Counted from the stretch's first letter, positions 9,467-47,236 are shown. The stretch is DNA of 64,000 bases from an uncultured Alphaproteobacteria bacterium (GCA_944389185.1 CALXLL010000001.1:93014-157013), one strand, 5' to 3'. Notes: generated by a model from the letters alone, not told the origin. Program-made: numbers and translations.

Positions 9467-9485
9467 TAATGGTTCTTGGTATGAA

Positions 9486-9521
9486 AAGACTCGCTTGGGA
9501 AAAATAAGCGAGTCTTTTTTT
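9486..9521 (+). terminator. rho-independent terminator (probably bidirectional, between secretin gene and rpsT)
   Basis: 11-bp stem aagactcgctt/aagcgagtctt, 9-nt loop, followed by a T-run; an A-run precedes it. Confidence 0.5.
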
Positions 9522-9618
9522 ATGCACTTGTTTATATTTTATTTGTGTCTGTTATTTGTTTGTATACGACAAAAATCCCGCAAAAAGTATGCGGGACAAA
9601 CAACAAACTTTTTTTATT

Positions 9619-9876
9619 TTATTTAGCAGCAGCTTTCTTTGCCAAACGAGAAACTTTGCGAGATGCACGTTTCTTTGGCATTGTTTTACCAGCTGCTTTC
9701 ATAATTTTGCTTTCTGCGTTACGTAATGCAGATGTTGCAGCTGCTTTGTCGCCAGATTCAATTGCAACCAAAGCTTTCTTTGTAGCTGTTTTTACAGAAC
9801 TGCGACGTGCTGTGTTAATAGCGTTCTTTTTTGCTGTTACTAATATTCTTTTTTTTGATGACTTATGATTTGCCAC
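9619..9876 (-). CDS. rpsT: 30S ribosomal protein S20
   Basis: MANHKSSKKRILVTAKKNAINTARRS..., 85 aa, basic, classic S20. Confidence 0.85.
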   Translation of the reverse strand: MANHKSSKKRILVTAKKNAINTARRSSVKTATKKALVAIESGDKAAATSALRNAESKIMKAAGKTMPKKRASRKVSRLAKKAAAK

Positions 9877-9949
9877 TTTATTTTCCTTTTATTTTTTAAG
9901 GTTTTCTGCTATTTTATAGAAAACAAAGATAAAATCAAGGAAAAATAAA

Positions 9950-10537
9950 ATGATATATGTAATTACTATAATTATTTCTTATTTGTTAGGTAGCATACCT
10001 ATGGGCTTGGTATTAACGAAAATTGCAGGTAAAGGGGATATTCGTAAAGTAGGTAGCGGTAATATCGGCGCAACGAATGTTATGCGAGTAGGCGGCTTAA
10101 GACTTGCGGGACTTACTTGGATTCTTGATATGCTGAAAGCTATATTTGCCGTTTTTATCGGGGCTTATTTAGTTGATCCAGTCTGGGGGGCTTGGTGCGG
10201 ATTTTTTGCTATTGTTGGACACTGTTTTCCTGTTTGGCTGAAATTTCATGGAGGAAAGGGGATTTCTTGCTTGTTTGGTATTATGCTGGCTGTAAACCCT
10301 TTAATATTTGCCGTGCTTGGTATAGAATGGTTAATAATCTCTTTATCCACGGGGTATTCTTCGTTGGGTGCAATTATAGTTATGTGCTTATTCCCCGTTT
10401 TTGGCTTCGTGATGGGGGGCGGTTTCGGTTGGGCTTTCTTGGCAATAAGTTTGCTTTGTTTGATAAAGCATCATGAAAATATAGGACGCTTGGTCGGTGG
10501 AACCGAATCAAAAATTACATGGAAGTGGAAGAAATAA
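9950..10537 (+). CDS. plsY: glycerol-3-phosphate acyltransferase PlsY
   Basis: LLGSIPMGLVLTK...GSGNIGATNVMRVGG motif; 195 aa membrane protein. Confidence 0.85.
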   Translation: MIYVITIIISYLLGSIPMGLVLTKIAGKGDIRKVGSGNIGATNVMRVGGLRLAGLTWILDMLKAIFAVFIGAYLVDPVWGAWCGFFAIVGHCFPVWLKFHGGKGISCLFGIMLAVNPLIFAVLGIEWLIISLSTGYSSLGAIIVMCLFPVFGFVMGGGFGWAFLAISLLCLIKHHENIGRLVGGTESKITWKWKK

Positions 10538-10635
10538 AGCTTCTTATAAATAAAAAAGCTCTGCTGAATTAAAGTAGAGCTTTATTTTTAAGTCTTTTTT
10601 TGGTATAATATATAAAAATGTAGTAGGGGATAAAT

Positions 10636-11475
10636 ATGAAAAGAATATTTTTTCTTGGTTTGGGAATGTTGCTGTGTGTCAGTTCTTGGGCTGCTGATTC
10701 AGGAACGCAAAGTCGCAGGTCTATGGCTGCACAAGTAATGACAGCGCCCCGTTCAACAGCATCGGTAAATCAGATAAACGCTATGGCAATGGCAAACGTT
10801 GCGTCATCTGAAAGTGCTGCGACTGATAAATCAAGTGTTCAAGCCAATAATAATACATTACCAGATGTTTCTGTTAGCACCGAAGTAGATATGCGTGAAA
10901 AAGAAAAAGCTGCTTGCATAAATAATAATATAGGTATAGGAAATACTTTTGTGTGGGCTTCTCGTTACAGTAATACTAATAATTATGCGACAATGGTAGA
11001 GGATGTGGAAAATCCTGAAAATAATACATGTTTTGTTCGCGTAGAAGTAAAGTCAAATGATGCAAGAGTTGATGTGTCCGACGTTCCTGCTAAGTATTAC
11101 GAATGGGGTAAGACAATAGTATGCGGTTCTTGGGCAGATGAAGATATTTTGAATCAGCGAATATTAGACGCTAAAAAAAGCGGAAGAACTTGGGCTACTA
11201 TAGGTGGTGTAGTAGGTGGTGCCGGTATAGGCGTCGGTGCAATGGAATTATTCGGTAACGAGTTAATTGGCGGTAAAGTAGAAGGTCAGAATAACGAAAA
11301 CTTATCAGAAGCTGAAGTTTTACGTTCTCAGTTGCTAGCTATTAAAGGAACGCCTGATTATAATGACTTTATGGCACTCTTACGTCAATTAAAAGCAGAG
11401 TGTGATAATTGGACAGGTGAAGGTAGGCCGGAAGAATGTTCTGCTTATGATTATGATTTCTTGTTAAATCTTTAA
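10636..11475 (+). CDS. secreted hypothetical protein with C-proximal glycine-zipper hydrophobic segment
   Basis: Signal peptide MKRIFFLGLGMLLCVSSWA; Cys-containing middle; TWATIGGVVGGAGIGVGAMELFG glycine zipper. Confidence 0.4.
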   Translation: MKRIFFLGLGMLLCVSSWAADSGTQSRRSMAAQVMTAPRSTASVNQINAMAMANVASSESAATDKSSVQANNNTLPDVSVSTEVDMREKEKAACINNNIGIGNTFVWASRYSNTNNYATMVEDVENPENNTCFVRVEVKSNDARVDVSDVPAKYYEWGKTIVCGSWADEDILNQRILDAKKSGRTWATIGGVVGGAGIGVGAMELFGNELIGGKVEGQNNENLSEAEVLRSQLLAIKGTPDYNDFMALLRQLKAECDNWTGEGRPEECSAYDYDFLLNL

Positions 11476-11479
11476 AAAT

Positions 11480-11498
11480 CGCCCGAAAGGGCGTTTTT
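11480..11498 (+). terminator. rho-independent terminator
   Basis: cgccc-GAAA-gggcg hairpin (GNRA loop) followed by ttttt. Confidence 0.5.
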
Positions 11499-11545
11499 AA
11501 TAAAGTGCTTTTGTTTTATATCAATTTATTTCTATACTATGACTT

Positions 11546-12568
11546 ATGAAAGAAGATATTTTATATAAATTGTTATTATTACGCACACCAAAAATTGGTG
11601 CGGTTAAATATAACGAATTGATAAAGCAATTTGGAAGCGCAAAAAACGCAGCAGAAAGTTTAAAAAATACTTCTGTATACGATTCGGTCTTACGGGAAAT
11701 AGAGCAGGCTGAAAAGCTGGGTATACATTTTATATCTGACGATGATGATTTTTATCCTGTAAATCTAAAGGAAATTAAAAATCATCCACCTGTAATTTCT
11801 GTTAGGGGTAATTTAGATACTTTGTTAAAAGATGCTGTAAGTATAGTGGGGACAAGACATGCAACCGTTGCAGGTATGAGGCTAATATCTGAAATAGCTG
11901 AGCGATTCGCTTCTAATAATTATTCCGTTGTTTCGGGTATGGCAATAGGAAGTGATTCAGCGGCACATATGGGGGCTTTAAATGCGGTCGGTAACGGTCA
12001 GACAATTGCGGTTTTGGCTGGCGGAGTAGATTATATATGGCCACTGGAAAACGAATCTTTATATCACAAAATAATAGATCGAGGTGCCATAATTAGTGAA
12101 ATGCCACTTGGGTTTATACCAAAGGGGCAAAACTTTGCACAAAGGAATCGTTGGATTGCTGGAATAGGTGAAAAACTTGTTTTAGGAGAAGCCGATTTAG
12201 CATCGGGGTCTATGCTGACTGCTCGATTCGCACTTAGTTACGGAAGAAAACTATATGCAATTCCGTCACATCCTTTAGATGCAAGGGCTGTGGGTCCAAA
12301 TACTTTAATAAAAAATGGATTGGCAGAATTGTGTATGGGGGCAGATGATTTTTTTCATAAAGAAAAAAAGAATGACTTTGAAAAGATAAAAGAAGAAAAA
12401 ATAAAAAAAGACGATTCGCTTTTAGATAAAATAGGAACAATTCCAGTGTCCGAATCTGTATTGGCAGAAGTTGTCAAAAAATCAGTTGCGGAAATTAAAA
12501 GTGAATTAGTGGTTCTAGAATTGCAAGGTTTAATAAGAAAACAAGACGGTGGTTACGTCCGTTTATAA
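11546..12568 (+). CDS. dprA: DNA processing protein DprA (Smf)
   Basis: VSIVGTRHATVAGMRLISEIA...SGMAIGSDSAAHMGAL...AIPSHPLD, the Rossmann-like DprA core. Confidence 0.7.
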   Translation: MKEDILYKLLLLRTPKIGAVKYNELIKQFGSAKNAAESLKNTSVYDSVLREIEQAEKLGIHFISDDDDFYPVNLKEIKNHPPVISVRGNLDTLLKDAVSIVGTRHATVAGMRLISEIAERFASNNYSVVSGMAIGSDSAAHMGALNAVGNGQTIAVLAGGVDYIWPLENESLYHKIIDRGAIISEMPLGFIPKGQNFAQRNRWIAGIGEKLVLGEADLASGSMLTARFALSYGRKLYAIPSHPLDARAVGPNTLIKNGLAELCMGADDFFHKEKKNDFEKIKEEKIKKDDSLLDKIGTIPVSESVLAEVVKKSVAEIKSELVVLELQGLIRKQDGGYVRL

Positions 12569-12577
12569 AATAAAAAA

Positions 12578-12598
12578 TGTATATACAGTGTATATACA
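12578..12598. repeat. tandem duplication of the self-complementary decamer TGTATATACA
   Basis: tgtatatacaG tgtatataca, directly after the dprA stop in the dnaA upstream region. Confidence 0.6.
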
Positions 12599-12921
12599 AA
12601 GTGCGGAAATCTGGCAAAAAAACGAATCGTTGTCAAAAAATAAATGTTGAAAAATCGTTCAACATTTTGTTGAAAACTTAATTTAATCTTATAACTTATT
12701 TTACGTATCCAAAACCGATTGAGAAACATCAATCACAAACGCGAGAGAGTAAAAAGTAGGAATCTTAACTTTGTAACGTTTAAATAAAATACGATTACAA
12801 AGAATTAAGTAACAAGAAACATAGATTACTGAACGTTCAGTTAATTTAGCGTTTCTGTGCAGGTGTTTTTTACACTCTTGTGCGGCAGGAAACTCTTTTA
12901 AGGAAGGAAAGGAGAAACGAC

Positions 12922-14211
12922 ATGCAGACAGCAGCTATAAAAACAAATATGACTAACTTGGAAACAATCAAGGAGGCCATAGCTGCAAAAATGGATTCTG
13001 CCAGTTTCACTTCTTGGATTGCCCCCTTAAACTTTTCTATTTGTGACGGTGATTTAGTATTATCTGCTCAGAATCAATTCTCTGCTGATTTTATAGGCAG
13101 TGTTCATTCGGGGGTTCTTAATGCAGTTGCTGCAGAATTCGGTTTGGGTTTAAAAATATGCGTTCGTAATTCTGTGAACGCGGTTAAGAATATTGCTAAT
13201 GATAATAATGTTCAAGTTTATGCACCCGTTGCAGATGTCGTAAAAAAAGAATCTGATGAAAAAGCATTCGATTCTTTCGTTGCATGTGAAGAAAATGCTT
13301 TTGTATTGTCTGCTTGTAAGAAAGTTGCGGCGGGTAAAGTTTCTTTCTCGCCGTTGTTTATTTATGGACCTGCTGGTTGCGGTAAAAGCTTGTTGCTGGA
13401 TTGTATTAACAGTTCTTCTTTCGGTCGTTGCGTTATGATGACAGGGGCTCAGTTCGTAGCAGAGTTTACTCGCAGCCTTCAAAATCGCAGCGTATTTGCT
13501 TTCAAAGATTTTTGTCGTAATTGTGATACTTTTATCTTGGACGATGTTCAGACTTTGGCTGGTAAGCGTGCAAGTTGTGAAGAGTTTTTACAATTAGTTA
13601 TGGATTTGCGCTTGGTGGGTAAAAATGTTGTTATATCAGCTAATGCGGCGCCAAATAACTTATCTGGTTTCGACCGTCGTATGCAGTCTTTGCTTGCTTC
13701 CGGATTGGTTGCCGATGTTATCGCACCAAATGCAAATGTTAAACGCGTGATGTTAATGCGTGCCGGTGTTGAAATGGATGTTGCTGAAGCTTTGTCCGCA
13801 AGAATTGCTGGTAACGGTCATTTAATTGGCGGTGTTGCAAATAAAATAAGAACCTATAAAGAATTAATGGGGACGGTCGTTGATATGAATGTTGCAGAAC
13901 GTTTATTGGCAGATTCTTTGCAAAAAGCAAAAACACCTGTTGCAATGGTAAAGGCTATGTGTGAAAAGCTGGGGGTTACTTATGAAGCGGTTTGCGGTAA
14001 AGGTCGTAATCGTTCTTTAGTTTTGGCACGTCAGATAATGATGGTAGTTTTGAAAGAAGCAACAGGTTTGTCTTTATCAGAAATAGGTATTTATTGTGGT
14101 AATCGTGATCATGCAACAGTTTTATATGCAATTGGTCAGATAGAAAAATTAAAGCAGACAGATTTAGTTTTAGCCGCACAAATAAATCAATTAGTTGCAG
14201 AATGCAAGTAA
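12922..14211 (+). CDS. dnaA: chromosomal replication initiator protein DnaA
   Basis: N-terminal FTSWIAPL; Walker A LFIYGPAGCGKSLLL; DDVQTLAGK sensor; C-terminal DNA-binding CGNRDHATVLYAIGQIEKL. Start placed at the ATG preceded by ggaaaggag rather than the ORF-track start at 12880. Confidence 0.85.
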   Translation: MQTAAIKTNMTNLETIKEAIAAKMDSASFTSWIAPLNFSICDGDLVLSAQNQFSADFIGSVHSGVLNAVAAEFGLGLKICVRNSVNAVKNIANDNNVQVYAPVADVVKKESDEKAFDSFVACEENAFVLSACKKVAAGKVSFSPLFIYGPAGCGKSLLLDCINSSSFGRCVMMTGAQFVAEFTRSLQNRSVFAFKDFCRNCDTFILDDVQTLAGKRASCEEFLQLVMDLRLVGKNVVISANAAPNNLSGFDRRMQSLLASGLVADVIAPNANVKRVMLMRAGVEMDVAEALSARIAGNGHLIGGVANKIRTYKELMGTVVDMNVAERLLADSLQKAKTPVAMVKAMCEKLGVTYEAVCGKGRNRSLVLARQIMMVVLKEATGLSLSEIGIYCGNRDHATVLYAIGQIEKLKQTDLVLAAQINQLVAECK

Positions 14212-15561: not shown

Positions 15562-17541
15562 CTATAAAAATAGGTCTTTAACAAATTGAGCATGCTCGGT
15601 TATAAACTTAAATCTGAATTCTGGCTTTTTACCCATCAGTTCAGATACTATCGTTCTTGTCTTCTCTGTATCTTCTGCACCGTCGTCTGTTCTTGGCGGT
15701 AATTCTACGCGTATTAATCGGCGGGTCTTCGGTGACATTGTCGTTTCTTTTAATTGATTCGGCATCATTTCACCCAGCCCTTTAAATCTTGATATTTCTA
15801 TCTTCTTATTTTTATATTTACCGTTTTTAAGATTTTCAAGCTCTTCATCCGAATCTACATAAATAGAATCTGTTCCGCATGTTAACTTATATAACGGCGG
15901 ACAAGATAAATATAAATGACCACCATAAATTAATTGCGGCATACACTGATAGAAAAACGCCATCAAAAGTGATGCTATATGACTGCCATCAACGTCAGCA
16001 TCGGTCATTACTATTATCTTTTCGTATCTTAATTTATTTTCGTCCCAATCTTTTGCGGTGCCAGCACCTATAATGTCTATTAATTCGTTTAGCTCTTTAT
16101 TCGCAACAAATCTTTCGTCCGAATTAGATATAACGTTTAATACCTTACCGCGAAGCGGCATAATAGCTTGTGTCGCTCTATCTCGTGCTTGTTTCGCAGT
16201 TCCTCCAGCCGATTCTCCTTCTACTATAAAAAGTTCCGTTCCTTCTATGCCATGCTTAGAGCAATCTGCAAGCTTTGCCGGCATACGAATCCTTTTTGTC
16301 GGGGTTTTTCTTGCTATATCTTTTACTTGCTTCGTTTTAATTCTTGCATTGGCAAGGTTTATTACGAAGTCTAGTAATGTATTTGCTGTTTTCGGATCTG
16401 ATGCTAGAAATATTTCCCATGGGTCGCGTAAAGCATTTTCTGTAAATCTTGCCACTTCAGGATTTGATAATTTTTCTTTTGTTTGACCTAAAAACTGAGG
16501 ACTTTTATAAAATACAGATACTATCGCTGCCACAGAATCAAAAACATCTTCACTTATAATGGATGCCGCAGATTTATTATTTATCTTTTCACCATAGGCT
16601 TTTATTCCTTTTGTTATAGCAGACTTAAAACCTGTTTCGTGCGTTCCACCGTCTATTGTTGCAATAGTATTACAATAAGACGCAAAAAACCCATCGTCTG
16701 ACGCAGCACCATTTTCATCGGTTAAAAAAGTCAAAGCCCATTCAATGCGACCGGAATCGTCTGGAAAATCAACGCTGCCACTAAAAATCTTGGGTAATAT
16801 TCTTGGCTTATTATTCGTTCTTTCTTCTAAAAAATCGGCAACCCCGTTCGGATAATAAAATACTGTATCCGAAGGAATATTCATATCTTCTGTTAATAAT
16901 TCTGGGTTGCAATGCCATTCTATTTTTACGCCTTTTGATAAGAATGCTTTTGCCCTTGCCATACGATATATTTTTATCGGCTTGAATACAGCACTTGGTC
17001 CAAAGATTTCATCATCTAAAGTAAATTGTATGTCTGTGCCATGACCCTTACTTTCTTCCATTCTTGTCATTGCGCTTGTAGGTTTACCCCTGGAAAACGT
17101 TTGGCGCCATTTATAACCGTCCCTGGTTATAACAACAATCATTTCAGAGCTTAATGCATTAACTACTGCGCTTCCTACACCATGCAAACCACCACTGGTT
17201 TTATATACATTGTTATTGAATTTACCCCCAGAATGAAGCGTGGTAAGTATAACTTCTAATGCAGACTTACCGGGATACTTTGGGTGCTCGTCAACTGGTA
17301 TTCCACGCCCGTCATCAATTATACGAATTGTTTTTGAATCTATTAAATTAACAGTTATTTTTTTCGCAAAACCAGCGACCGCTTCGTCAATAGAGTTATC
17401 CATAATCTCTATCGGTAAATGGTGCCAAGCTTTTTCGTCTGTCCCACCTATATACATACCAGGACGAAGACGAACTGGTTCCAGACCTTCTAATACCTGA
17501 ATATCAGAAGCGTCGTATGTGTGTGTATTATTTTCTGTCAT
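15562..17541 (-). CDS. parE: type IIA topoisomerase B subunit, ParE-like (topoisomerase IV subunit B) by length
   Basis: GHKL ATPase and TOPRIM motifs (LEGLEPVRLRPGMYIGGT...EGESAGG). At 659 aa it lacks the ~170-aa GyrB-specific insertion. Confidence 0.6.
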   Translation of the reverse strand: MTENNTHTYDASDIQVLEGLEPVRLRPGMYIGGTDEKAWHHLPIEIMDNSIDEAVAGFAKKITVNLIDSKTIRIIDDGRGIPVDEHPKYPGKSALEVILTTLHSGGKFNNNVYKTSGGLHGVGSAVVNALSSEMIVVITRDGYKWRQTFSRGKPTSAMTRMEESKGHGTDIQFTLDDEIFGPSAVFKPIKIYRMARAKAFLSKGVKIEWHCNPELLTEDMNIPSDTVFYYPNGVADFLEERTNNKPRILPKIFSGSVDFPDDSGRIEWALTFLTDENGAASDDGFFASYCNTIATIDGGTHETGFKSAITKGIKAYGEKINNKSAASIISEDVFDSVAAIVSVFYKSPQFLGQTKEKLSNPEVARFTENALRDPWEIFLASDPKTANTLLDFVINLANARIKTKQVKDIARKTPTKRIRMPAKLADCSKHGIEGTELFIVEGESAGGTAKQARDRATQAIMPLRGKVLNVISNSDERFVANKELNELIDIIGAGTAKDWDENKLRYEKIIVMTDADVDGSHIASLLMAFFYQCMPQLIYGGHLYLSCPPLYKLTCGTDSIYVDSDEELENLKNGKYKNKKIEISRFKGLGEMMPNQLKETTMSPKTRRLIRVELPPRTDDGAEDTEKTRTIVSELMGKKPEFRFKFITEHAQFVKDLFL

Positions 17542-35654: not shown

Positions 35655-36374
35655 ATGAAAAAGGTTTTATTAGCCGTTGTTTTTGGGTCTGTGTTTTTTT
35701 GCGCAAATTCTTGGGGGGCGGCAAGTTATTTACAAAGAGATGGCAATTGGGGTTATCAGGTTACTTATGATTATACAGATAAAGCAAAAACAGGTTGGTA
35801 TGTCGGTGGACGTGCAGAACTTAGTTTGTTAAATTGGACGAATAAATATGATACCGATTGGCCTGGTGCGGTCGGGGCTTTTGAAGAAGATAAGTATTCT
35901 TTTGAACCGGTTTTCGGTGGAAGTTTGTTTGCCGGTAAAAGATTTGCTTATTTTTGGCGTGCTGAATTAGAAGCTGGTTATCTGGGGTATTTTGAAGATA
36001 AAGATAATATAGCAGAGTTTTCTTTGTCTATTCCATATATGACGGCAAATATTTACTATGATTTTATAAATAATTTGTATGTTGGGGCAGGAGTCGGCGT
36101 TGCGTTGCCTATGACTACATTAGACGGTTCATTCTTTAAATATGAAAAGCGTCAGGATATTGCGGTTGCGCCTATGGTTGCTTTAATGTTGGGGTATTCT
36201 TACGAGTTGGATGATAATCTGGTATTAGATTTGCGCTATCGTCTGTCTGGTATGACTGGTATTACTCATAGAGTAGATATGGAAGAATATAGCGGAACAG
36301 TAAGATACTTTGAAAATAAAATAGATTTTATTTTGGATAATTCGTTTTCTATTGGTTTAAGGTATGAATTTTAA
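35655..36374 (+). CDS. outer-membrane beta-barrel protein (OmpW/OmpA-like)
   Basis: Signal peptide; alternating amphipathic strands; C-terminal GLRYEF with terminal Phe. Confidence 0.55.
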   Translation: MKKVLLAVVFGSVFFCANSWGAASYLQRDGNWGYQVTYDYTDKAKTGWYVGGRAELSLLNWTNKYDTDWPGAVGAFEEDKYSFEPVFGGSLFAGKRFAYFWRAELEAGYLGYFEDKDNIAEFSLSIPYMTANIYYDFINNLYVGAGVGVALPMTTLDGSFFKYEKRQDIAVAPMVALMLGYSYELDDNLVLDLRYRLSGMTGITHRVDMEEYSGTVRYFENKIDFILDNSFSIGLRYEF

Positions 36375-36395: not shown

Positions 36396-36425
36396 TTGAC
36401 GCGATTCGGTAAAATATGATATTAT
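36396..36425 (+). promoter_or_regulatory. candidate sigma70 promoter for the tail-fibre-repeat gene array
   Basis: TTGACG-18-TATTAT, ~20 nt upstream of the ATG at 36446. Confidence 0.3.
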
Positions 36426-36445: not shown

Positions 36446-38119
36446 ATGAAAAATAAATTAAAAATATCAATTTTAAGTCTTGTATGCGTGCTTGGCGTAG
36501 GTTTTGCAGATGCACAAGCGGCTTCTTCCGTAAGAACTTTGGGCGGGACAGGTACTTATGTAAGTGCGTCCAGTGCGGCAAATGCGGAAAGTGGTGGAAC
36601 GGTTGCTTCTATTGCTAGGGGCGGGTCCGTTCGTGTAAGCCCAACGACTTCTCAGACTACTACTTCAAGCTCTTCTGAATCAAGTTCCGGAACGCGCGTT
36701 GTTAATGTGCCTCGTTTATCTATTGGACAATATTTGGGTGGTGGAACTTCTGTAAGTGGTGGAAGCTCTTTAAGGCCTCAGACGCCCAGCACAGGTTCTT
36801 CTTCTGGTGGCGGAACAATAGATCCTGGGCTTACATCGGAATTGCAGCGTGATGTCGATCAATTAAAACGTGATTTTTCTGATTTGGCAGATAGTAACGA
36901 CAGAATAACAGAAGCTTTGAATGAAAAGCAAAATATTTTATTACCGGATTCGGAAGGTTTTATTGATATAGACCAAAATACAAATGAAATATATCTTAAT
37001 ATAGAACCTTTAAAAGAAGCAATTAGCGATATTGTCGGGCAGTCAGGGCGTGAAATAGAAATAGGGCACGACACCAACCAGTTACAATGGCACTATGTAG
37101 ATGACCCGAATTGGAATACTATAATTTCGTTCGCTGATTTGGCTGCTTATGGTAATTATGCGGTTAGTGATGATTTGGCTGATTTTGTTAAAGCAGATGA
37201 AATGGAAACTGCTATATCGCAAGCTATTACAAATGCTGCGACAAACTACGCTACTAAATCTGATTTAGATTTGAAAGCAGATAAAGCGGATTTAGATTTA
37301 AAAGCAAATGTGGCAGATGTTTATACAAAATCTGAAACCTTAAACAAGCAAGAAATAGCTGATGCTATTGCAGAAGCTGTGACAGACGGGACTGTAGATT
37401 TAACTGGTTATGCAAAGACAGATTATGTTGACGCTCAGCTTGGTTTAAAGGCAGACGCTGATGACGTTAGTGATTTGTCTGGTCGTGTTGATTTGGTAGA
37501 AAGTGGCGTTCAGGCATTGGGGGTAAGTGTTGGAACTGCCCAAGACACTGCCGAAGCCGCTAAAACAGAGGCAGATAAAGCAAATCAAGCCTTGACAACT
37601 AAAGCAGAACAAAGTGATTTGACAGCGCTTGAAACTAGGGTTGGGGCAAATGAAGCTTCTATTACAGGCTTGAATAATAAGATAGGTTCAGATGAATTAG
37701 AAACTACTTCCAAGCAGATAGTCGGGGCCATTAATGAAATAAAGCAGAAAGCAGATAGCTTGCCAAACGACGATAATTTTGAAGAAATGAATCAGAAAAT
37801 AACAAATATAGAATCAAAAGTAGATACCGCCGTTACAAGTATCGATAGTAAGGCTGATACTAGTTATGTTGATGAAGAATTAGCCAAAAAGGCAAACGAG
37901 GCCGATTTAGGTTTGTTGGCTAAGAAAAATCAGGTTGTAGATGCAGATATTGCAGATGGTGCCGAGATTTCCAAAGCAAAACTGTCTGCTGAAGTTCGTC
38001 AAAGTTTAGCTAATGCGGATTCGGCGGTCAATATGGAAGGTGCCGGTCCAAATATGGTCTTGGGGACAGACGAAAACGGCGACAAAGTCTGGTATGAAAT
38101 AGTAGATATTAAAGAGTAG
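36446..38119 (+). CDS. secreted repeat protein, paralog 1 of 4 (Ser/Thr/Gly-rich linker plus tail-fibre-like and coiled-coil repeats)
   Basis: Signal peptide; TTSQTTTSSSSESSSG low-complexity region; repeats KSDLDLKADKADLDLKANVADVYTKSE; same strand and family as the next three genes. Confidence 0.6.
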   Translation: MKNKLKISILSLVCVLGVGFADAQAASSVRTLGGTGTYVSASSAANAESGGTVASIARGGSVRVSPTTSQTTTSSSSESSSGTRVVNVPRLSIGQYLGGGTSVSGGSSLRPQTPSTGSSSGGGTIDPGLTSELQRDVDQLKRDFSDLADSNDRITEALNEKQNILLPDSEGFIDIDQNTNEIYLNIEPLKEAISDIVGQSGREIEIGHDTNQLQWHYVDDPNWNTIISFADLAAYGNYAVSDDLADFVKADEMETAISQAITNAATNYATKSDLDLKADKADLDLKANVADVYTKSETLNKQEIADAIAEAVTDGTVDLTGYAKTDYVDAQLGLKADADDVSDLSGRVDLVESGVQALGVSVGTAQDTAEAAKTEADKANQALTTKAEQSDLTALETRVGANEASITGLNNKIGSDELETTSKQIVGAINEIKQKADSLPNDDNFEEMNQKITNIESKVDTAVTSIDSKADTSYVDEELAKKANEADLGLLAKKNQVVDADIADGAEISKAKLSAEVRQSLANADSAVNMEGAGPNMVLGTDENGDKVWYEIVDIKE

Positions 38120-38139
38120 GGTTTTAAAAGGTGGCCTAA

Positions 38140-39861
38140 ATGAAGAAGAATAGCGCGATATTTCTGGGGATAACGGGTTTATTAGTTTTTGCAGATAGTA
38201 TGTCTTATGCTGCAACTAAAAAAATAGCTTCTCAGTCATATGTTGATAGTAGAGAATCAGAGATATTAAATGAAGTACAAAACACTTATGAAACAAAAGA
38301 AAATGTTAGTGCTATAAGTCAGAAGATTACAGACTTAGGAAATCAAATATCTGATCCTACTGATGGTTTGTCCGCTAAAATAGATAAGGTGGCTGGTGAT
38401 TTATCAACAACGCAAGGAACCGTTGCCACAATAAGCGGCGATTTAGAAAATAAAGAAGACGTTGGAAACAAAGCGACGAGTATTACTGTTGAGAATCAGG
38501 CATCACCTACGGCTTATCCTTCTGTAAGTGCAATAGTTCAATGGACGAACGATAAAATATTAGAATTATCGGAAGAAGGTTTACCTGTAAGCCCTGACAA
38601 TATCGGTGCAGGTTCTATTACAGAAGATAAATTAGATGCGGCGGTTGTAAATAAAATAGACGGCAAAGAAGATAAGACTAATAAAGTTATCACGCTTCGT
38701 GATTCTGCCGTGGCAACTGATACGGCGTATCCGTCAGAGAAAGCAGTTGCAACTGCTTTGGAAGGTAAGGCAGATATTGCAGATTTAGATTCTTATGCGA
38801 CCACAGATTCTTTGGCTACGGTTGCAACGACCGGTTCTTATAATGATTTAATTGATGCACCAGATATACCAGAAGCAGTCGTTGTTGATGAAGCAATTAC
38901 AGCACAAGGAACGAACCCCGTTCAAGGTAAAGCTGTATATGAAGCTTTGGCGGGTAAACAACCGGTTGGTGATTATGCAACAAACACAGAATTAAGTGAT
39001 GTTAGTTCTACTGCAGAATCTGCGCAAAGTGACGCTACTTCGGCATTGAGTGCAGCGGCAGAAGCAAAGACTTTGGCCGGCACCAAAGTTACTGCAAATG
39101 AAGATATAGTCGCAGGCACTGGAACAAAAATAACTTATGATGCGAAAGGTTTGGTAACAGGTAGCGCAAATCTTGAAGTTGCGGATTTACCTGATGCTAT
39201 ACCGACAAGCAAGATAACCGGTTTAGCCGATGTCGCAACAAGTGGTTCTTATAATGATTTAGCAGATACCCCTGTTATACCAGACGCAGTCGTTGTTGAC
39301 GAGACAATTACAGCGCAAGGAACGAACCCTGTTCAAGGTAAAGCTGTATATGAAGCTTTGGCGGGTAAGCAGGCTGTTGGTGATTATGCAACAACTGATG
39401 AATTGTCTGCATATGCGACTACTGAAGACATTGCAAAAATGGAAAATGTCGATAATAAGGCTGCTTCTATTACATCTGAAAATCAGTCTTCGGTTACAGC
39501 TTATCCTTCTGTTGGTGCAATAGTTCAATGGACGAACGATAAAATATCAGAACTATCAGAAGAAGGTCTGCCCGTAAGTCCAGACAATATCGGTGCGGGT
39601 TCTATTACAGAAGATAAATTGGATGTGGCGGTTGTAAATAAAATAGATTCTAAGGAAGACAAAACAAATAAAGTTTCACAAATTGACGATACTAACAAAA
39701 CAGACGAGACGAAATATGTCAGCGTCAAAGCTGTTGCGGACTACGTTATACCAAAGCCTAGCAAAGATTGCACTGCTCAATCTGGGTTATGTGTTCTTTC
39801 TGCTACGACCGATGGTGGTTTTGCTTGGGTGAATGTTACTGCCCCGGCTGGTGAAAATTAA
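38140..39861 (+). CDS. secreted phage-tail-fibre-repeat protein, paralog 2 of 4
   Basis: Signal peptide; TKKIASQSYVD; repeats AYPSEKAVATALEGKAD, ATTGSYNDLIDAPDIP and NPVQGKAVYEALAGKQ; two internal cassette duplications; C-terminal two-Cys module. Confidence 0.65.
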   Translation: MKKNSAIFLGITGLLVFADSMSYAATKKIASQSYVDSRESEILNEVQNTYETKENVSAISQKITDLGNQISDPTDGLSAKIDKVAGDLSTTQGTVATISGDLENKEDVGNKATSITVENQASPTAYPSVSAIVQWTNDKILELSEEGLPVSPDNIGAGSITEDKLDAAVVNKIDGKEDKTNKVITLRDSAVATDTAYPSEKAVATALEGKADIADLDSYATTDSLATVATTGSYNDLIDAPDIPEAVVVDEAITAQGTNPVQGKAVYEALAGKQPVGDYATNTELSDVSSTAESAQSDATSALSAAAEAKTLAGTKVTANEDIVAGTGTKITYDAKGLVTGSANLEVADLPDAIPTSKITGLADVATSGSYNDLADTPVIPDAVVVDETITAQGTNPVQGKAVYEALAGKQAVGDYATTDELSAYATTEDIAKMENVDNKAASITSENQSSVTAYPSVGAIVQWTNDKISELSEEGLPVSPDNIGAGSITEDKLDVAVVNKIDSKEDKTNKVSQIDDTNKTDETKYVSVKAVADYVIPKPSKDCTAQSGLCVLSATTDGGFAWVNVTAPAGEN

Positions 39862-39892
39862 AACAAACAACAAACTAAATAAAGGAAAAAAA

Positions 39893-41071
39893 ATGAAAAA
39901 ATTAACCGCAACAATTTTTGTGGCTTTATTAACGGCTGTATCTACTGGTGCTGCAAAGGCAGATATCGCTTCCAGTGGATATGTTGATGAAAAAGTTGGT
40001 GCTGTGTCGGCTACTGTAGCTACTAAGGCTGATCAATCAGATGTTGATACTTTAAGCGCAAGTGTTGAAACTAACACAGAAGATATTACAGCTTTGGAAG
40101 GACAAGTTGCTTTGAAAGCAAATTCTGCTGATGTTTATACAAAAACAGCTGCTGATGGTAAGTTCCAAACATTAGAGAATATATCTGATTCTGCAAATGC
40201 TGTTGTTACAGATAAAGATAGTGAAGTTAAATATCCTTCTGTAAAAGCTGCCCATGCAATCGCAACAGCAGCAGTTGATGGCGTAACTGGCAATGTGTCT
40301 GGTTTGACAACTCGTGTAGAGACAATAGAAGATGAAATGGATACTTATGGAAATATAGTCACAACTAATAAAGAATCCTATGCAACAGCTGCACAAGGTG
40401 CTTTGGCAGACACAGCTTTGCAAAAAGAAGGTGCTTTAACACAAGGTAATTTATTAACAACTGATGCTGCCGGTAAAATTATAGATGCTGGTGCAAAGGG
40501 GGCTTTGGCAAATAAAAATACAGTTTCCGCAGCTGATATAGATGCAAATGCTGTTACAACAGAAAAAATCTTAAATGCGAACGTTACAAGAGCTAAATTG
40601 GCGACAGATGTAACAACATCTTTGGATAAAGCTGATACTGCATTGCAAGAGGCAAGTTTGGAAGGCTATGTGACAAAAGAACAGGCAGATTCAGACTATG
40701 CACCCAAAGCAACTGAAACAAAGGCTCAACAAGCTTTAACGGATATTGGCACAAAGGCTAATTTGACAACAGAGAAAAAAGATAACTTAGTAAATGCAAT
40801 TAACGAAGTTGATGCTGCATTGGATACAAAAGCCGATAGCAGTGCTGTTGCAGATATGTTGACTAAGACAGAAGCGTCTAGCACATATGAAACGAAAACG
40901 AATGCGCAAGCAACATATGAAACGAAAACGAATGCGCAAGCAACATATATACCAAAACCAGGTGTTAACTGCACAGAAGCTGGGGCAAAGTGCGTGTTGG
41001 TAACAAATGGAACAGACTTTACTTGGGAAGATATCGCAAGAGGAACATCTGAAGCAGGTGCTGAACAATAA
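39893..41071 (+). CDS. secreted phage-tail-fibre-repeat protein, paralog 3 of 4
   Basis: Start at MKKLTATIF preceded by aaaggaaaaaaaa (the ORF-track start at 39833 overlaps the previous gene); ADIASSGYVD; 30-bp tandem repeat; C-terminal IPKPGVNCTEAGAKCVL module. Confidence 0.65.
   Translation: MKKLTATIFVALLTAVSTGAAKADIASSGYVDEKVGAVSATVATKADQSDVDTLSASVETNTEDITALEGQVALKANSADVYTKTAADGKFQTLENISDSANAVVTDKDSEVKYPSVKAAHAIATAAVDGVTGNVSGLTTRVETIEDEMDTYGNIVTTNKESYATAAQGALADTALQKEGALTQGNLLTTDAAGKIIDAGAKGALANKNTVSAADIDANAVTTEKILNANVTRAKLATDVTTSLDKADTALQEASLEGYVTKEQADSDYAPKATETKAQQALTDIGTKANLTTEKKDNLVNAINEVDAALDTKADSSAVADMLTKTEASSTYETKTNAQATYETKTNAQATYIPKPGVNCTEAGAKCVLVTNGTDFTWEDIARGTSEAGAEQ
40883..40948 (+). 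repeat. perfect 30-bp tandem repeat (2 copies plus a 6-nt partial) inside paralog 3, encoding TYETKTNAQA x2
   Basis: acatatgaaacgaaaacgaatgcgcaagca occurs twice back to back, then acatat. Confidence 0.85.
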
Positions 41072-41080
41072 AGCCTTGTA

Positions 41081-41115
41081 ATACATCAGGAATCTGTTCT
41101 TGATTCCTGATGTAT
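41081..41115. other. perfect 14-bp-stem hairpin after paralog 3, followed by an A-run rather than a T-run
   Basis: atacatcaggaatc-tgttctt-gattcctgatgtat then aaaaaaag. Confidence 0.5.
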
Positions 41116-41181
41116 AAAAAAAGTTAAAATAAAGATGATAATAAAAAGATAGATAGTTAATTGTAGGACTTTATAGCGGAA

Positions 41182-42441
41182 ATGATAAAACGAAAGGTTG
41201 CTTTTTTCTCTGTTGGTGTTTTAAGCTTGATGATTCCTTGGTATAGTGCAACAGCTGATATTGCTTCAAAAAGTTATGTGGATCAAGAGGTAGGAAAAAA
41301 GCTAACTGCTGTCACAAGTAATACAACAGGCAGCGGTAATGTAGTGTCTGCCGTAAGTGCAACAGGCGGAACAATTACTGCAACAAAGGGTATTACCGCA
41401 GAAGAGGTTTCTAATAAAGTTAATACAATTCGTGATTCTGCTGCTGCTACTGATATTGCGTATCCATCTGAAAAGGCGGTTGCAACGGCTTTGGAAGGCA
41501 AAGCTGACAGTGCAGATTTGTCGGATTTAGCAACAAAAGCAGAATTAGAAAATTATGCAACTACAGAATCTTTGGCAACAGTCGCAACTACTGGTTCTTA
41601 TAACGATTTATCTGATAAGCCCGTTATACCGGAAGGCGTTGTTGTTGATGAAGTGATTACTGCAGAAGGAGTAAATCCAGTTCAAGGAAAAGCAGTATAT
41701 GAAGCTTTGGCTGGTAAGCAACCTGTGGGTGATTATGCTACAAATACAGCTTTAAGCTCTGTCCAGGCTACGGCGGAATCGGCACAGGATGATGCAACTG
41801 ATGCAATGCAAGCAGTGGATGGCAAAGTTTCAAAATCTCAAGGAACAGGAGCCGCAAATAAAGCTTTAGTTACAGATGCTTCTGGAAACGTGACTGCTGG
41901 AACGATTTCGTCTGCTATGATTACAGATGGAACGATAACAAATGCTGATATTTCAAGCTCTGCGGCAATTGATCAATCTAAAATATCAGGGTTAACAACT
42001 GCTTTGGCCGGGAAAGCCAATACCGAAGATTTAGCAGAAGTTGCAACAACCGGTTCGTATAACGATTTGACAGATAAACCTTCAATACCTGCTGCAATAA
42101 CGGTTGATACTGCTTTAAGTTCTACCAGCATAAATCCCGTTCAAAATAAAGTGATAAATACTGCTTTGGCCGGGAAGTTATCCACAACTGGGACCGCGGC
42201 AAAAGCAACAGCAGATGCAAACGGTAATAGTATAGTTGATACTTATGCTACTAAAACTCAATTATCAAGTTATGTTACTACTACTACTTTGAACGGTTTG
42301 GACAGCACAAGTTCCGGAACAGGCGCTGTCGTTACAGGGGTAAGTCAGACAAACGGTAAGGTGGCTGTAACTAAGGGTAACGTAAAAATACCGGTAGGAT
42401 CTGAAAGTGCTACTACTTATGCTACAATATGGATAGAATAA
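41182..42441 (+). CDS. secreted phage-tail-fibre-repeat protein, paralog 4 of 4
   Basis: Signal peptide; ADIASKSYVD; shares the ~190-bp ATTGSYNDL...NPVQGKAVYEALAGKQPVGDYATN cassette with paralog 2. Confidence 0.65.
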   Translation: MIKRKVAFFSVGVLSLMIPWYSATADIASKSYVDQEVGKKLTAVTSNTTGSGNVVSAVSATGGTITATKGITAEEVSNKVNTIRDSAAATDIAYPSEKAVATALEGKADSADLSDLATKAELENYATTESLATVATTGSYNDLSDKPVIPEGVVVDEVITAEGVNPVQGKAVYEALAGKQPVGDYATNTALSSVQATAESAQDDATDAMQAVDGKVSKSQGTGAANKALVTDASGNVTAGTISSAMITDGTITNADISSSAAIDQSKISGLTTALAGKANTEDLAEVATTGSYNDLTDKPSIPAAITVDTALSSTSINPVQNKVINTALAGKLSTTGTAAKATADANGNSIVDTYATKTQLSSYVTTTTLNGLDSTSSGTGAVVTGVSQTNGKVAVTKGNVKIPVGSESATTYATIWIE

Positions 42442-42460
42442 TCAAAATAATATAAACAAA

Positions 42461-42490
42461 AAGACGCCTTTTCAGCGTCTCTTTTTTTTT
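42461..42490. terminator. bidirectional rho-independent terminator (array end / dedA convergent)
   Basis: agacgc-cttttca-gcgtct hairpin plus a 9-nt T-run; an A-run precedes it. Confidence 0.5.
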
Positions 42491-45397: not shown

Positions 45398-45778
45398 ATG
45401 TCGCTGTTTAAATATTTAAAAAATAAAAAAATTAAAGATATAAAACAAGATATAAATCAGTATAGATTTTTGGGTTATATACAAAATGGTGCTAAAAAGG
45501 CCTATTTCGCAGCGTTAAAAAAAGTAGCTGTTGTATCTTTGAAAGATCCAGAAGATTATAAAATATGTATATTTGAAAGCGTCCCTTTGGTCGCAGAACC
45601 AGCAAATATTACTTATTGCAAAGATTTTGATCATAAAAATATGATTAATAATTGTAAAAATACTAATTGCCCGTGTTTTGAAGATAATCGTAATTTGTTT
45701 GATGCGGTCAGGTATTTAAAACACATTAAGGAAGTTAAACGCAATTTTTGGAAAGAAAAGTTAGCTTGTCAAAAATAA
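45398..45778 (+). CDS. small Cys-rich hypothetical protein (paralog A)
   Basis: 126 aa, starts MSLFKY, C-terminal C..C.C cluster; paralogous to the next ORF; RBS aaaggg. Confidence 0.4.
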   Translation: MSLFKYLKNKKIKDIKQDINQYRFLGYIQNGAKKAYFAALKKVAVVSLKDPEDYKICIFESVPLVAEPANITYCKDFDHKNMINNCKNTNCPCFEDNRNLFDAVRYLKHIKEVKRNFWKEKLACQK

Positions 45779-45790
45779 AGGTGTTAAGAA

Positions 45791-46204
45791 ATGTCTTTAT
45801 GGAAATATATAATATCAACGCCAAAACAAGCAATTTATGCTGATTATAAAAAATATAAAGATTTATGTAATGATATAAATAACGCAAAAATAAATTGTTT
45901 AAATCTTAAAATTAGTTTGGTTATAGACTTGGCATATGAAACAGATAAAGATCTGTTAAAAAAACAAAATGGTTGCATAATTATTAAATCTTTTGAAAAA
46001 CCAGATGCTGTGCAAAAACTTCCGGGAATAATAAGCGTTTTTAGTAATAATTGTGAATTTTTTAATGAAACTAGATGTTGCGATAAGGAAACGTGCTCGT
46101 TTTATAATAAAAATGCTGAATATTTTAAAGCTAAGAGAGCTTGTCGTGCGCTGGAAAAGCAAAAAAGAATATATTGGAAACAAAAGTTTGCTAATGCCAG
46201 GTAA
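45791..46204 (+). CDS. small Cys-rich hypothetical protein (paralog B)
   Basis: 137 aa, starts MSLWKY, CCDKETCSFYN cluster; shares the C-terminal K(R/Q).(F/Y)WK.K(L/F)A ending with paralog A. Confidence 0.4.
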   Translation: MSLWKYIISTPKQAIYADYKKYKDLCNDINNAKINCLNLKISLVIDLAYETDKDLLKKQNGCIIIKSFEKPDAVQKLPGIISVFSNNCEFFNETRCCDKETCSFYNKNAEYFKAKRACRALEKQKRIYWKQKFANAR

Positions 46205-46237: not shown

Positions 46238-47236
46238 ATGGCACATCAGTTTTATTTTAATCCTTATATTTTGGATAACCTTCCGGCCCCAAGTTCTGGC
46301 TTTGACGTAGTGCAAGATGTTTCAGAACCAAGACTTCGTATGTATATAACAAGTCGCGGTATTAAAAGCTTTTTTGTTCGTAAAAGAGTGCACGGTAAAG
46401 ATAAAAGAATAATTATAGGTAATTACCCAGAAATAGATATAGAAACCGCAAGAAGTGCAGTTCAAGATGTTTTAGATAAAGCTTTGCAAAAAGTTCCCGT
46501 TAATCGCCATAAAATATCATTTAAAAAAATAGTTGATATTTATATGTTAAAGCATGTAAGACGAACAGGGGGCGCAAAAGAAAAATTATATAGAGCTATT
46601 AATCTTCATTTGTTTAGTCTGTTTGATAAGACCCTTGTTGATATTACGACCGAAGACGTGAAAAGCGTTATAGATAAAATATCTGGACCTGTAATAGCAG
46701 GACGTATGCAAGAGCTTTTAAGAAGTATATTTAACTATGCTATAGAAACAGGGTATGCAAAAAATAACCCAGTTGATAATCTGCCAAAGCGAAAACATGA
46801 AATAAAAAAATCTCCACTAAATAAAAGCTTGTTCAATAGATTATTGCGATTAATAAAAAAGCAAGAATCTCAAAATATCCGTTCTGCTTTTTTGATGCTG
46901 ATTTATGGTTTCGCACCTAAGTCAAAAATATTTTCTATGCAATGGAAAGATTTGGATTTTAATCACTATACTTGGAATGATTTCCCTTTGTCCGATGCTG
47001 CGGTTGTGTTATTGCAAGATTTACCTCAGAATGGACGTTGGGTATTCCCTGGGCGTGGACGCGGACACTTAACAGACCCACGTATAGCGTGGCGCAAAAT
47101 AGTTGACACTATCGGGGTAAGTAATCTTACTATGGATGACTTATATAAATACTTGATGCGACAGTTAACCTGGACAGCAAATAAAGAAGATTTACGATTT
47201 AATATGAATGATTTACTGAATAATCTTATAGACTAA
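46238..47236 (+). CDS. P4-type tyrosine integrase remnant (arm-binding N-terminus intact, catalytic residues substituted, C-terminus truncated)
   Basis: N-terminus GFDVVQDVSEPRLRMYITSRGIKSFFVRKRVHGKDKRIIIGNYPEIDIETARSAV matches the DUF4102-type integrase arm domain. The catalytic-Arg box reads GFAPKSKIFSMQWKDLDF (R replaced by P), the HxLR box reads TMDDLYKYLMRQ, and at 332 aa the ORF ends before the catalytic Tyr. Confidence 0.45.
   Translation: MAHQFYFNPYILDNLPAPSSGFDVVQDVSEPRLRMYITSRGIKSFFVRKRVHGKDKRIIIGNYPEIDIETARSAVQDVLDKALQKVPVNRHKISFKKIVDIYMLKHVRRTGGAKEKLYRAINLHLFSLFDKTLVDITTEDVKSVIDKISGPVIAGRMQELLRSIFNYAIETGYAKNNPVDNLPKRKHEIKKSPLNKSLFNRLLRLIKKQESQNIRSAFLMLIYGFAPKSKIFSMQWKDLDFNHYTWNDFPLSDAAVVLLQDLPQNGRWVFPGRGRGHLTDPRIAWRKIVDTIGVSNLTMDDLYKYLMRQLTWTANKEDLRFNMNDLLNNLID

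Follow-up and report, generated by a model that had tools for sequence, protein, structure and literature searches.

The stretch of DNA analysed here (the window) is a piece of 64,000 nucleotides (nt) from the genome of an uncultured alphaproteobacterium with a G+C content of 36% (GCA_944389185.1, CALXLL010000001.1:93014-157013), and all positions are counted from its first letter. It contains a tandem family of four co-directional open reading frames (ORFs), here called p1 to p4, which occupy positions 36446-42441 and are separated by gaps of 20, 31 and 110 nt. Each is complete, with a start codon, a hydrophobic signal-peptide-like N-terminus (as read from the sequence) and a stop codon, and each is predicted to encode a secreted fibrous protein. 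Two families of repeated segments, cassettes A and B, lie within p2 and are partly shared with p4. These cassettes, and their part in the variation of the gene family, are the subject of this report. The features are collected in Table 1.

Table 1. Features of the p1-p4 locus and alignments between cassette copies (aa, amino acids; E, expect value).
Feature	Position	Strand	Remarks
Outer-membrane β-barrel gene, 239 aa, heading the locus	35655..36374	+	Pfam OMP_b-brl, E 2e-07
p1, 557-aa secreted fibrous protein	36446..38119	+	signal-peptide-like N-terminus, Ser/Thr/Gly-rich, then coiled-coil-like repeat region
27-nt tandem repeat in p1, 1.9 copies	37255..37306	+	Tandem Repeats Finder
p1 segment, 441 nt in frame, missing in L007 and L009	37458..37898 (ambiguous by ~11 nt)	+	~11-nt direct homology TTAAAGGCAxAC at breakpoint
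p2, 573-aa secreted fibrous protein	38140..39861	+	order A1-B1-B2-A2, then Cys-x6-Cys C-terminal motif
Cassette A1 in p2	38481..38693	+	85.0% to A2 over 213 nt
81-nt insertion site of 600-aa p2 alleles	38782..38787	+	three extra 27-nt units, ENYATTxDL
Cassette B1 in p2	38811..38983	+	GSYNDLxDxPxIP ... NPVQGKAVYEALAGK; 87% to B2, 81% to B3
Cassette B2 in p2	39222..39394	+	87% to B1
Cassette A2 in p2	39468..39679	+	conserved among strains except L004
p3, 392-aa secreted fibrous protein	39893..41071	+	Cys-containing C-terminal motif, same type as p2
p3 segment, 399 nt in frame, missing in L007	40004..40402	+	6-nt microhomology GGTGCT at breakpoint
Perfect 30-nt tandem repeat in p3, 2.2 copies	40883..40948	+	Tandem Repeats Finder, 100% matches
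p4, 419-aa secreted fibrous protein	41182..42441	+	length constant among strains
p4 block in common with p2	41411..41799	+	pairs with 38678-39039, 73% over 389 nt
Cassette B3 in p4	41571-41743	+	inside p2/p4 block; 80-81% to B1 and B2
B4, degenerate fourth B copy in p4	42021..42201 (about)	+	against B3: 59% nt, 52% aa
Pair A1/A2	38481-38693 / 39468-39679		85.0% over 213 nt, one 3-nt indel, E 1e-64
Pair B1/B2	38821-38983 / 39232-39394		87.1% over 163 nt, E 3e-53
Pair B2/B3 (p4)	39232-39394 / 41581-41743		79.8%
Pair B1/B3 (p4)			80.9%

Cassettes in p2 and p4

A first-pass annotation of this DNA had described the two cassette families as near-identical, with about 90% identity. DNA self-comparison of the locus confirms both families, their positions and their reading frame, but the degree of identity was overstated, the measured values being 85-87% for the pairs in p2 and about 80% when p2 is compared with p4. 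The similarity that had been noted between p2 and p4 is real, and it is broader than first described, extending over 389 nt. No other long repeats beyond the A and B families were found within the 64-kb window, and a chance origin of the repeats can therefore be excluded. Every copy of A and B is in direct orientation, and the copies (80-87% identical) are dispersed rather than arranged head to tail.

The longest identical runs are 33 nt between A1 and A2, 38 nt between B1 and B2, and 17 nt between B3 and either B1 or B2. Codon-wise comparison gives a synonymous divergence (dS) of 0.69 for A1/A2, with a ratio of nonsynonymous to synonymous divergence (dN/dS) of 0.08; for B1/B2 the values are 0.42 and 0.16, and for B1 or B2 against B3 they are 0.87-0.89 and about 0.1. 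With dS at 0.4-0.9, dN/dS at about 0.1 and identical runs of 33-38 nt, the cassettes of the window strain are old duplications under purifying selection on the protein, and there has been no recent homogenisation in this strain.

These same values, with no identical run longer than 38 nt, are what one would look for if the cassettes were static structural repeats, that is, ancient domain duplications kept for the sake of the fibre and playing no role in variation. The length of p4 is invariant, A2 is conserved in most strains, and both modules are conserved across species, which all fit such a static arrangement. It fails, however, to account for the clean paralogue-derived tracts and mosaic B2 alleles described below, or for an identity between B1 and B2 that ranges among strains from 85% to 94%, and we consider it unlikely.

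Variation among conspecific strains

Nine conspecific loci were compared, all from independent metagenome assemblies and with flanks that are 98-99.5% identical to the window. The lengths of p1, p2, p3 and p4 are 557, 573, 392 and 419 aa in the window; 557, 573, 399 and 419 aa in L008; 410, 573, 399 and 419 aa in L009; 410, 573, 266 and 419 aa in L007; and 557, 600, 399 and 419 aa in both L005 and L010. In L004, p1 and p2 are fused into a single protein of 640 aa, while p3 is cut at the end of the contig and p4 lies outside it. The protein P0038, which is 99% identical to p4, has 419 aa as well.

Measured per 250 nt, nucleotide diversity (π) stands at about 0.003 in the 6 kb flanking the locus on each side. 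Within the locus it is 0.13-0.14 (maximum 0.137) at 38387-38800, 0.06-0.07 at 38806-39300 and 0.08 in central p3, so that the locus is 20-40 times as diverse as its flanks. The differences between strains are clustered in blocks, with a dS of 0.3-1.4 and a dN/dS of 0.06-0.2 within the blocks, and a dS of 0.015-0.03 in the N- and C-terminal parts of p2. Block values of this size indicate replacement by old sequence and not the accumulation of point mutations. The central (fibre-shaft) parts of p1-p3 are thus a hotspot of diversity, and both termini of the proteins, like the flanking genes, are nearly invariant. At the B1 position alone, the allele differs by 13% between conspecific strains.

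Some of the replaced sequence matches a paralogous cassette. In L004, the A2 position is occupied by a tract of about 225 nt that is of A1 type, with one mismatch to the A1 of the window; because the sequence directly to its left and right is of A2 type, the tract ends at the edges of the cassette. In L010, p4 differs from the window at 21 positions, seven of which lie within 41580-41640, and all seven have the state of L010's own B1/B2. As a result of this apparent conversion, B2 and B3 share an identical run of 83 nt in L010, compared to 17 nt in the window. The conversion tract in B3 was read in L010 alone. The B2 cassette has five haplotypes in six strains, which are mosaics of B1-, B2- and B3-type segments. 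Taking all differences between strains inside the B cassettes, 118 out of 143 match the state of a paralogous copy, a count that is rough and descriptive because the strains are not independent.

The strain comparison therefore contradicts an invariant structure without exchange. The proposal of the first-pass annotation, that the cassettes are a substrate for recombination, stands as far as exchange from strain to strain is concerned, given the tracts in L004 and L010 and the mosaic B2 alleles; it does not extend to recent homogenisation in the window genome, where dS is too high. The sequences support recombinational variation at the level of the population, as a process that would act during strain-to-strain evolution. 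Variation in the copy number of the A and B cassettes had also been suggested, and no such change is seen among the strains, with the exception of the gene fusion.

The length variants that do occur arise away from the cassettes, at homologies of 6-12 nt and at a 27-nt unit. The two deletions listed in Table 1, of 441 and 399 nt, and the fusion of p1 and p2 in L004 are all in frame. The left breakpoint of the fusion falls within the 27-nt repeat of p1, and p1 and p2 overlap by 12 nt at the junction. The 600-aa alleles of p2 differ from the others in the number of ENYATTxDL units, of which there is about one copy in one allele and four in the other.

Other blocks have no donor within the locus. 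L005 and L010 carry an A1 allele that has no more than 67% identity to that of the window, and the allele blocks of p3 are mosaic and assort independently among strains, with no paralogous donor; both point to the import of alleles from other lineages. To judge from these sequences, much of the diversity is made up of apparently imported divergent alleles for which the locus holds no donor. One may go further, and propose that whole allelic blocks are exchanged between strains or lineages by ordinary homologous recombination after DNA uptake and that the cassettes are mere bystanders. The donor-less A1 allele, the independent assortment of the p3 blocks and a block dS of up to 1.4 would all be expected on that basis. 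However, it fails for tracts that match a paralogue of the same genome identically and whose ends coincide exactly with the edges of a cassette, and as a full account of the locus it is doubtful. Exchange of allelic blocks is probably a real contributor that acts in parallel, rather than an alternative.

Protein modules and gene neighbourhood

Module A, the protein product of cassette A, comprises about 70 residues (NKAxSIxxENQxSxTAYPSVxAIVQWTN...), and is found again across the relatives of p2, where some of its positions hardly vary. No relative of it was found in viral contigs. Module B comprises about 55 residues (VATTGSYNDLxDKPxIP...NPVQxK....ALAGK), and is of a phage-fibre type that is abundant in the tail-fibre ORFs of phages. 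It matches P0104, a protein bearing the Pfam phage tail repeat (PTR) and Peptidase_S74 domains, with a BLASTP expect value of 4e-22. Membership of the PTR family (PF12789) was taken as a match above the gathering score of 27 bits; p2 and p4 have no match to this model at E <= 0.1, and B4 in isolation has none at E <= 10. Given the strong match to P0104 in spite of this, module B is related to PTR and lies outside the model.

The degenerate copy B4 is the one nearest to the canonical phage-fibre module. IMG/VR viral contigs contain at least 310 relatives of it, with up to 80% amino acid identity. The viral ORFs in which these lie match PHROG tail and tail-fibre families, and phrog_17509 is common to p2, p4 and those viral ORFs. 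A tblastn search of GenBank phages with p4 gave no match, and a profile-guided scan of IMG/VR gave one weak locus. A phage origin for the whole proteins was considered and rejected, since whole-protein searches are practically empty and module B alone is held in common with viruses.

Among 8000 candidates scored, homologues at E <= 0.001 numbered 976 for p2 and 2886 for p4. No informative names were found among them, the cluster look-ups giving only 'hypothetical protein'. Neither Pfam nor NCBIfam has a family for p1-p4; PHROGs gives weak tail matches and Pfam weak coiled-coil matches, the latter being the only kind obtained for p1. A phmmer search of the PDB gave no match at E <= 1, and a literature search for the motif GSYNDL gave no match. 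AlphaFold2 monomer models built with family alignments are poor, with a predicted local distance difference test (pLDDT) score of 48.8 for p2 and 53.0 for p4, and Foldseek found no match in the PDB for the p4 model. Poor monomer models are unsurprising if the proteins are intertwined trimers.

The N-termini of p2-p4 have in common a motif of about 10 residues, IASxxYVD, which follows the signal peptide and after which the sequences diverge. At the other end, p2 (39760-39858) and p3 (40960-41068) have a C-terminal motif, Y-[VI]-P-K-P ... C-x6-C-V-L ... G ... W, that is invariant across the family; the C-termini of p1 and p4 are also conserved but are of different kinds. The p2/p3 motif is one that we take, as an unconfirmed lead only, to resemble the foldon of T4 fibritin; when the last 57-58 aa of p2 and p3 were searched against PDB sequences, no foldon chain was found. 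Unlike p2-p4, p1 has a long low-complexity stretch rich in Ser, Thr and Gly after its signal peptide (36520-36830), which could be a flexible or glycosylated linker. The 30-nt repeat of p3 encodes TYETKTNAQA and is the sole 100%-identical repeat of the locus.

A promoter-like site precedes p1 (36396-36425) and a bidirectional terminator-like hairpin follows p4 (42458-42484). An upstream ATG (39833-39892) would add 20 codons to p3 and overlap the end of p2; the evidence of the orthologues of p3, which begin MKKLTATIF, and of the ribosome-binding site favours 39893 as the true start. Between the Shine-Dalgarno-like AGGA and the ATG at 39893 there is a run of A residues (39885-39892), which has eight residues (A8) in the window and nine (A9) in L007 and L009. 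A second run, after the terminator hairpin of p3 (about 41114-41122), is A7 or A8 among the strains. Such variation could modulate the translation of p3.

The neighbouring genes are housekeeping genes, coding for an FtsE-like ABC ATPase, an OmpA-family protein, TolB, RbfA and LepA. The β-barrel gene is found upstream of p1 at the same place in every conspecific locus and in the loci of three other species (L001-L003; uncultured Alphaproteobacteria or proteobacterium). In these species the order β-barrel-p1-p2-p3-p4 is kept, between ftsEX/pal and a VTT-domain gene, rbfA and lepA. The N- and C-termini are conserved in them and the central modules differ, and each has its own repeats within and between genes, such as a stretch of 101 nt at 97% identity between p1 and p2 of L002. 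Downstream of p4 in L003, and outside the called genes (16095-17311), there are several further repeats of 110-420 nt with 84-95% identity.

About 4 kb downstream of the family in the window there is an integrase-like ORF (46238-47236) with Arm-DNA-binding and central domains and no match to a catalytic domain. It is preceded by two small paralogous Cys-rich ORFs with no family (45398-45778 and 45791-46204), and all conspecific loci that extend this far have it at the same position. Taken with a tandem family that shares cassettes, and with a poly-A length upstream of p3 that varies among strains, such an ORF might bring to mind a programmed system with high-frequency switching, whether antigenic variation of the pilE/pilS, msp2 or vlsE type, a shufflon or a diversity-generating retroelement. 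The pilE/pilS, msp2, vlsE and tprK systems combine one expression site with an archive of silent, promoterless or truncated cassettes. Here, by contrast, there is no such archive of donors: all copies lie in four complete ORFs, and there are no truncated or silent cassettes in the 64 kb. Cassette identity is low, and the integrase-like ORF, with its missing catalytic-domain match and its presence in all sufficiently long loci, argues against a programmed system rather than for it. Site-specific inversion of the shufflon kind was rejected, because 35-48 kb contains no significant inverted repeats and the cassettes are all direct. No signs of a diversity-generating retroelement were met in the window, in which no search aimed at a reverse transcriptase was made. 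Programmed variation is thus highly improbable.

Interpretation and comparison with known systems

The reading that we prefer, and to which we would give a probability of roughly three in four, is that the cassettes are reused protein modules of a conserved four-gene family of secreted fibrous proteins, which occasionally recombine across strains alongside other processes. As strains diverge, ectopic homologous recombination, presumably RecA-dependent, would now and then take place between the copies. In most cases it would leave a short non-reciprocal conversion tract, about 60 to 225 nt long, either inside p2 or between that gene and p4. In parallel, there would be in-frame deletions and one gene fusion at direct homologies of 6-12 nt, changes in the copy number of the 27-nt unit, and the import of divergent alleles from other lineages. 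What the sequences show directly is the repeats and how far they have diverged, the tracts, the breakpoints and the profile of diversity; the pathway of recombination, surface exposure, a trimeric fibre structure, and selection of the variation by hosts, phages or immunity are inferred.

Several points weigh against this reading. The window genome itself has no sign of recent exchange, and between copies that have diverged by 13-20% recombination should be rare if mismatch repair is intact. The surface location and the trimer are predicted only, the AlphaFold monomers having pLDDT scores of 49 and 53. All of the comparison loci are short-read metagenome assemblies, in which a chimeric consensus of strains is possible, and L004 comes from a single sample with a coverage of about 4.8x (from the contig name). 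Three contigs (L011-L013) end at cassette B3. One of these, L011, appears to carry a duplication (9164-13950) with a hybrid of the N-terminal part of p4 and the C-terminal part of p2 and a second p3. Unequal crossing-over was rejected as its origin: the two units of 2370 nt are 100% identical, without a single mismatch, and a third pass through cassette B has gone on for only 46 nt when the contig stops. The duplication almost certainly arose in assembly, as a loop through the identical run of 83 nt.

It may then be asked whether all of the mosaics and length variants arose artificially when repeats from mixed-strain metagenomes were assembled, as L011, the 83-nt run shared by B2 and B3 in L010-type strains, the contigs that stop at B3 and the low coverage of L004 might suggest. 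Against this, the 600-aa p2 allele of the L010 type is found in eight contigs from several samples, every variant is in frame, and the junctions of 6-12 nt should not be long enough for an assembly graph to collapse at them, given the usual k-mer sizes. The architecture of the window also recurs in L008. We therefore regard a general artefact as quite unlikely, slightly more so than static repeats. The warning in the first-pass annotation that the locus may be mis-assembled is justified for strains with homogenised cassettes, and short-read assemblies of the locus should be distrusted there because contigs break or loop at the cassettes. The window itself is not mis-assembled, since the architecture of p1, p2 and p4 recurs in an independent assembly (L008) and the longest identical run is 38 nt.

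Recombination between repeated modules is already well known, and the mechanism proposed here is conventional, so that the value of the locus is descriptive and not conceptual. It provides a documented case of secreted fibrous proteins, probably surface fibres, that diversify by several routes at once, combining ectopic conversion of diverged modules, short-homology deletions and the import of alleles. The proteins form a family without annotation in Pfam, NCBIfam or the PDB that may merit its own study, and p1-p4 are candidate cell-surface determinants of adhesion or of phage/host interaction. The locus is also a good marker for strain typing.

A bolder and more tentative proposal, which we consider possible but not likely, is that the β-barrel and the four phage-fibre-like secreted proteins constitute an undescribed class of cell-surface fibre in uncultured low-GC Alphaproteobacteria, distinct from autotransporters and from the fibres of Bdellovibrio, with shafts that would gain diversity through the exchange of modules, both from paralogue to paralogue and with the gene pool of phage tail fibres. 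If this were true, the fibres might act as adhesins for host or prey glycans, or as decoys for phages.

Among known systems, the nearest parallels are the tandem Vomp/BadA adhesins, the modular UspA proteins and, in architecture, the MAT fibres, all described below. The alpha C/Rib and M-protein families differ from the locus in that cassettes A and B are not head-to-tail, near-identical repeats of variable number; only the 27-nt ENYATTxDL unit behaves in that way, and p3 has its perfect 30-nt repeat besides.

Vomp of Bartonella quintana (vompD/A/B/C) and BadA of B. henselae are alphaproteobacterial trimeric autotransporter adhesins (PMC10936683). The resemblance to p1-p4 lies in four tandem paralogous genes for fibrous proteins in an alphaproteobacterium, in repetitive stalk modules shared among the paralogues, and in strains or isolates that differ by deletions and rearrangements between paralogues (for Vomp, PMC10936683). 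However, searches of Pfam at E <= 0.1 found in p1-p4 neither the YadA anchor (PF03895) nor YadA head, neck or stalk repeats (PF05658, PF05662), PF05658 being carried only by one distant homologue (P0224). From the sequence comparison, the C-termini of p1-p4 are instead short motifs of 25-30 aa and the set of modules is phage-fibre-like.

In Moraxella catarrhalis, recombination moves modules within and between the genes for UspA1, UspA2 and UspA2H, giving hybrid proteins and mosaic alleles (PMC3458076). Here too, sequence modules are shared between paralogous fibre genes. The UspA proteins differ in being unlinked trimeric autotransporters for which exchange has been shown experimentally by transformation, whereas p1-p4 are adjacent and the evidence is comparative only; there is no sequence relation between the two families.

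The mosaic adhesive trimer (MAT) fibres of Bdellovibrio bacteriovorus are chromosomal, bear signal peptides and are built from phage tail-fibre-like modules (PMC10769870). The p1-p4 family is similar in all three respects, and is likewise a mosaic family with several members. MAT proteins have a conserved β-rich N-terminal domain of about 130 aa after the signal peptide. In p2-p4 the shared sequence there is limited to IASxxYVD, and low-confidence models place helices after the signal peptides of p2 and p4, the MAT N-terminal domain being compared by its description. MAT fibres are trimeric and have a variable C-terminal tip, with or without an S74 domain; p1-p4 have conserved C-termini and a variable centre, no S74 domain was found in them by Pfam, and the solved MAT fragments in the PDB gave no sequence match.

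Finally, phage tail fibres are mosaics of modules such as PTR (PF12789), and cassette B is of one type with modules in viral tail-fibre ORFs, with 60-80% amino acid identity and, as there, with repeated, exchangeable copies. The annotated genes around the locus give no sign of a prophage. Unlike phage tail fibres, p1-p4 stand in a conserved chromosomal locus between housekeeping genes, and carry Sec signal peptides.

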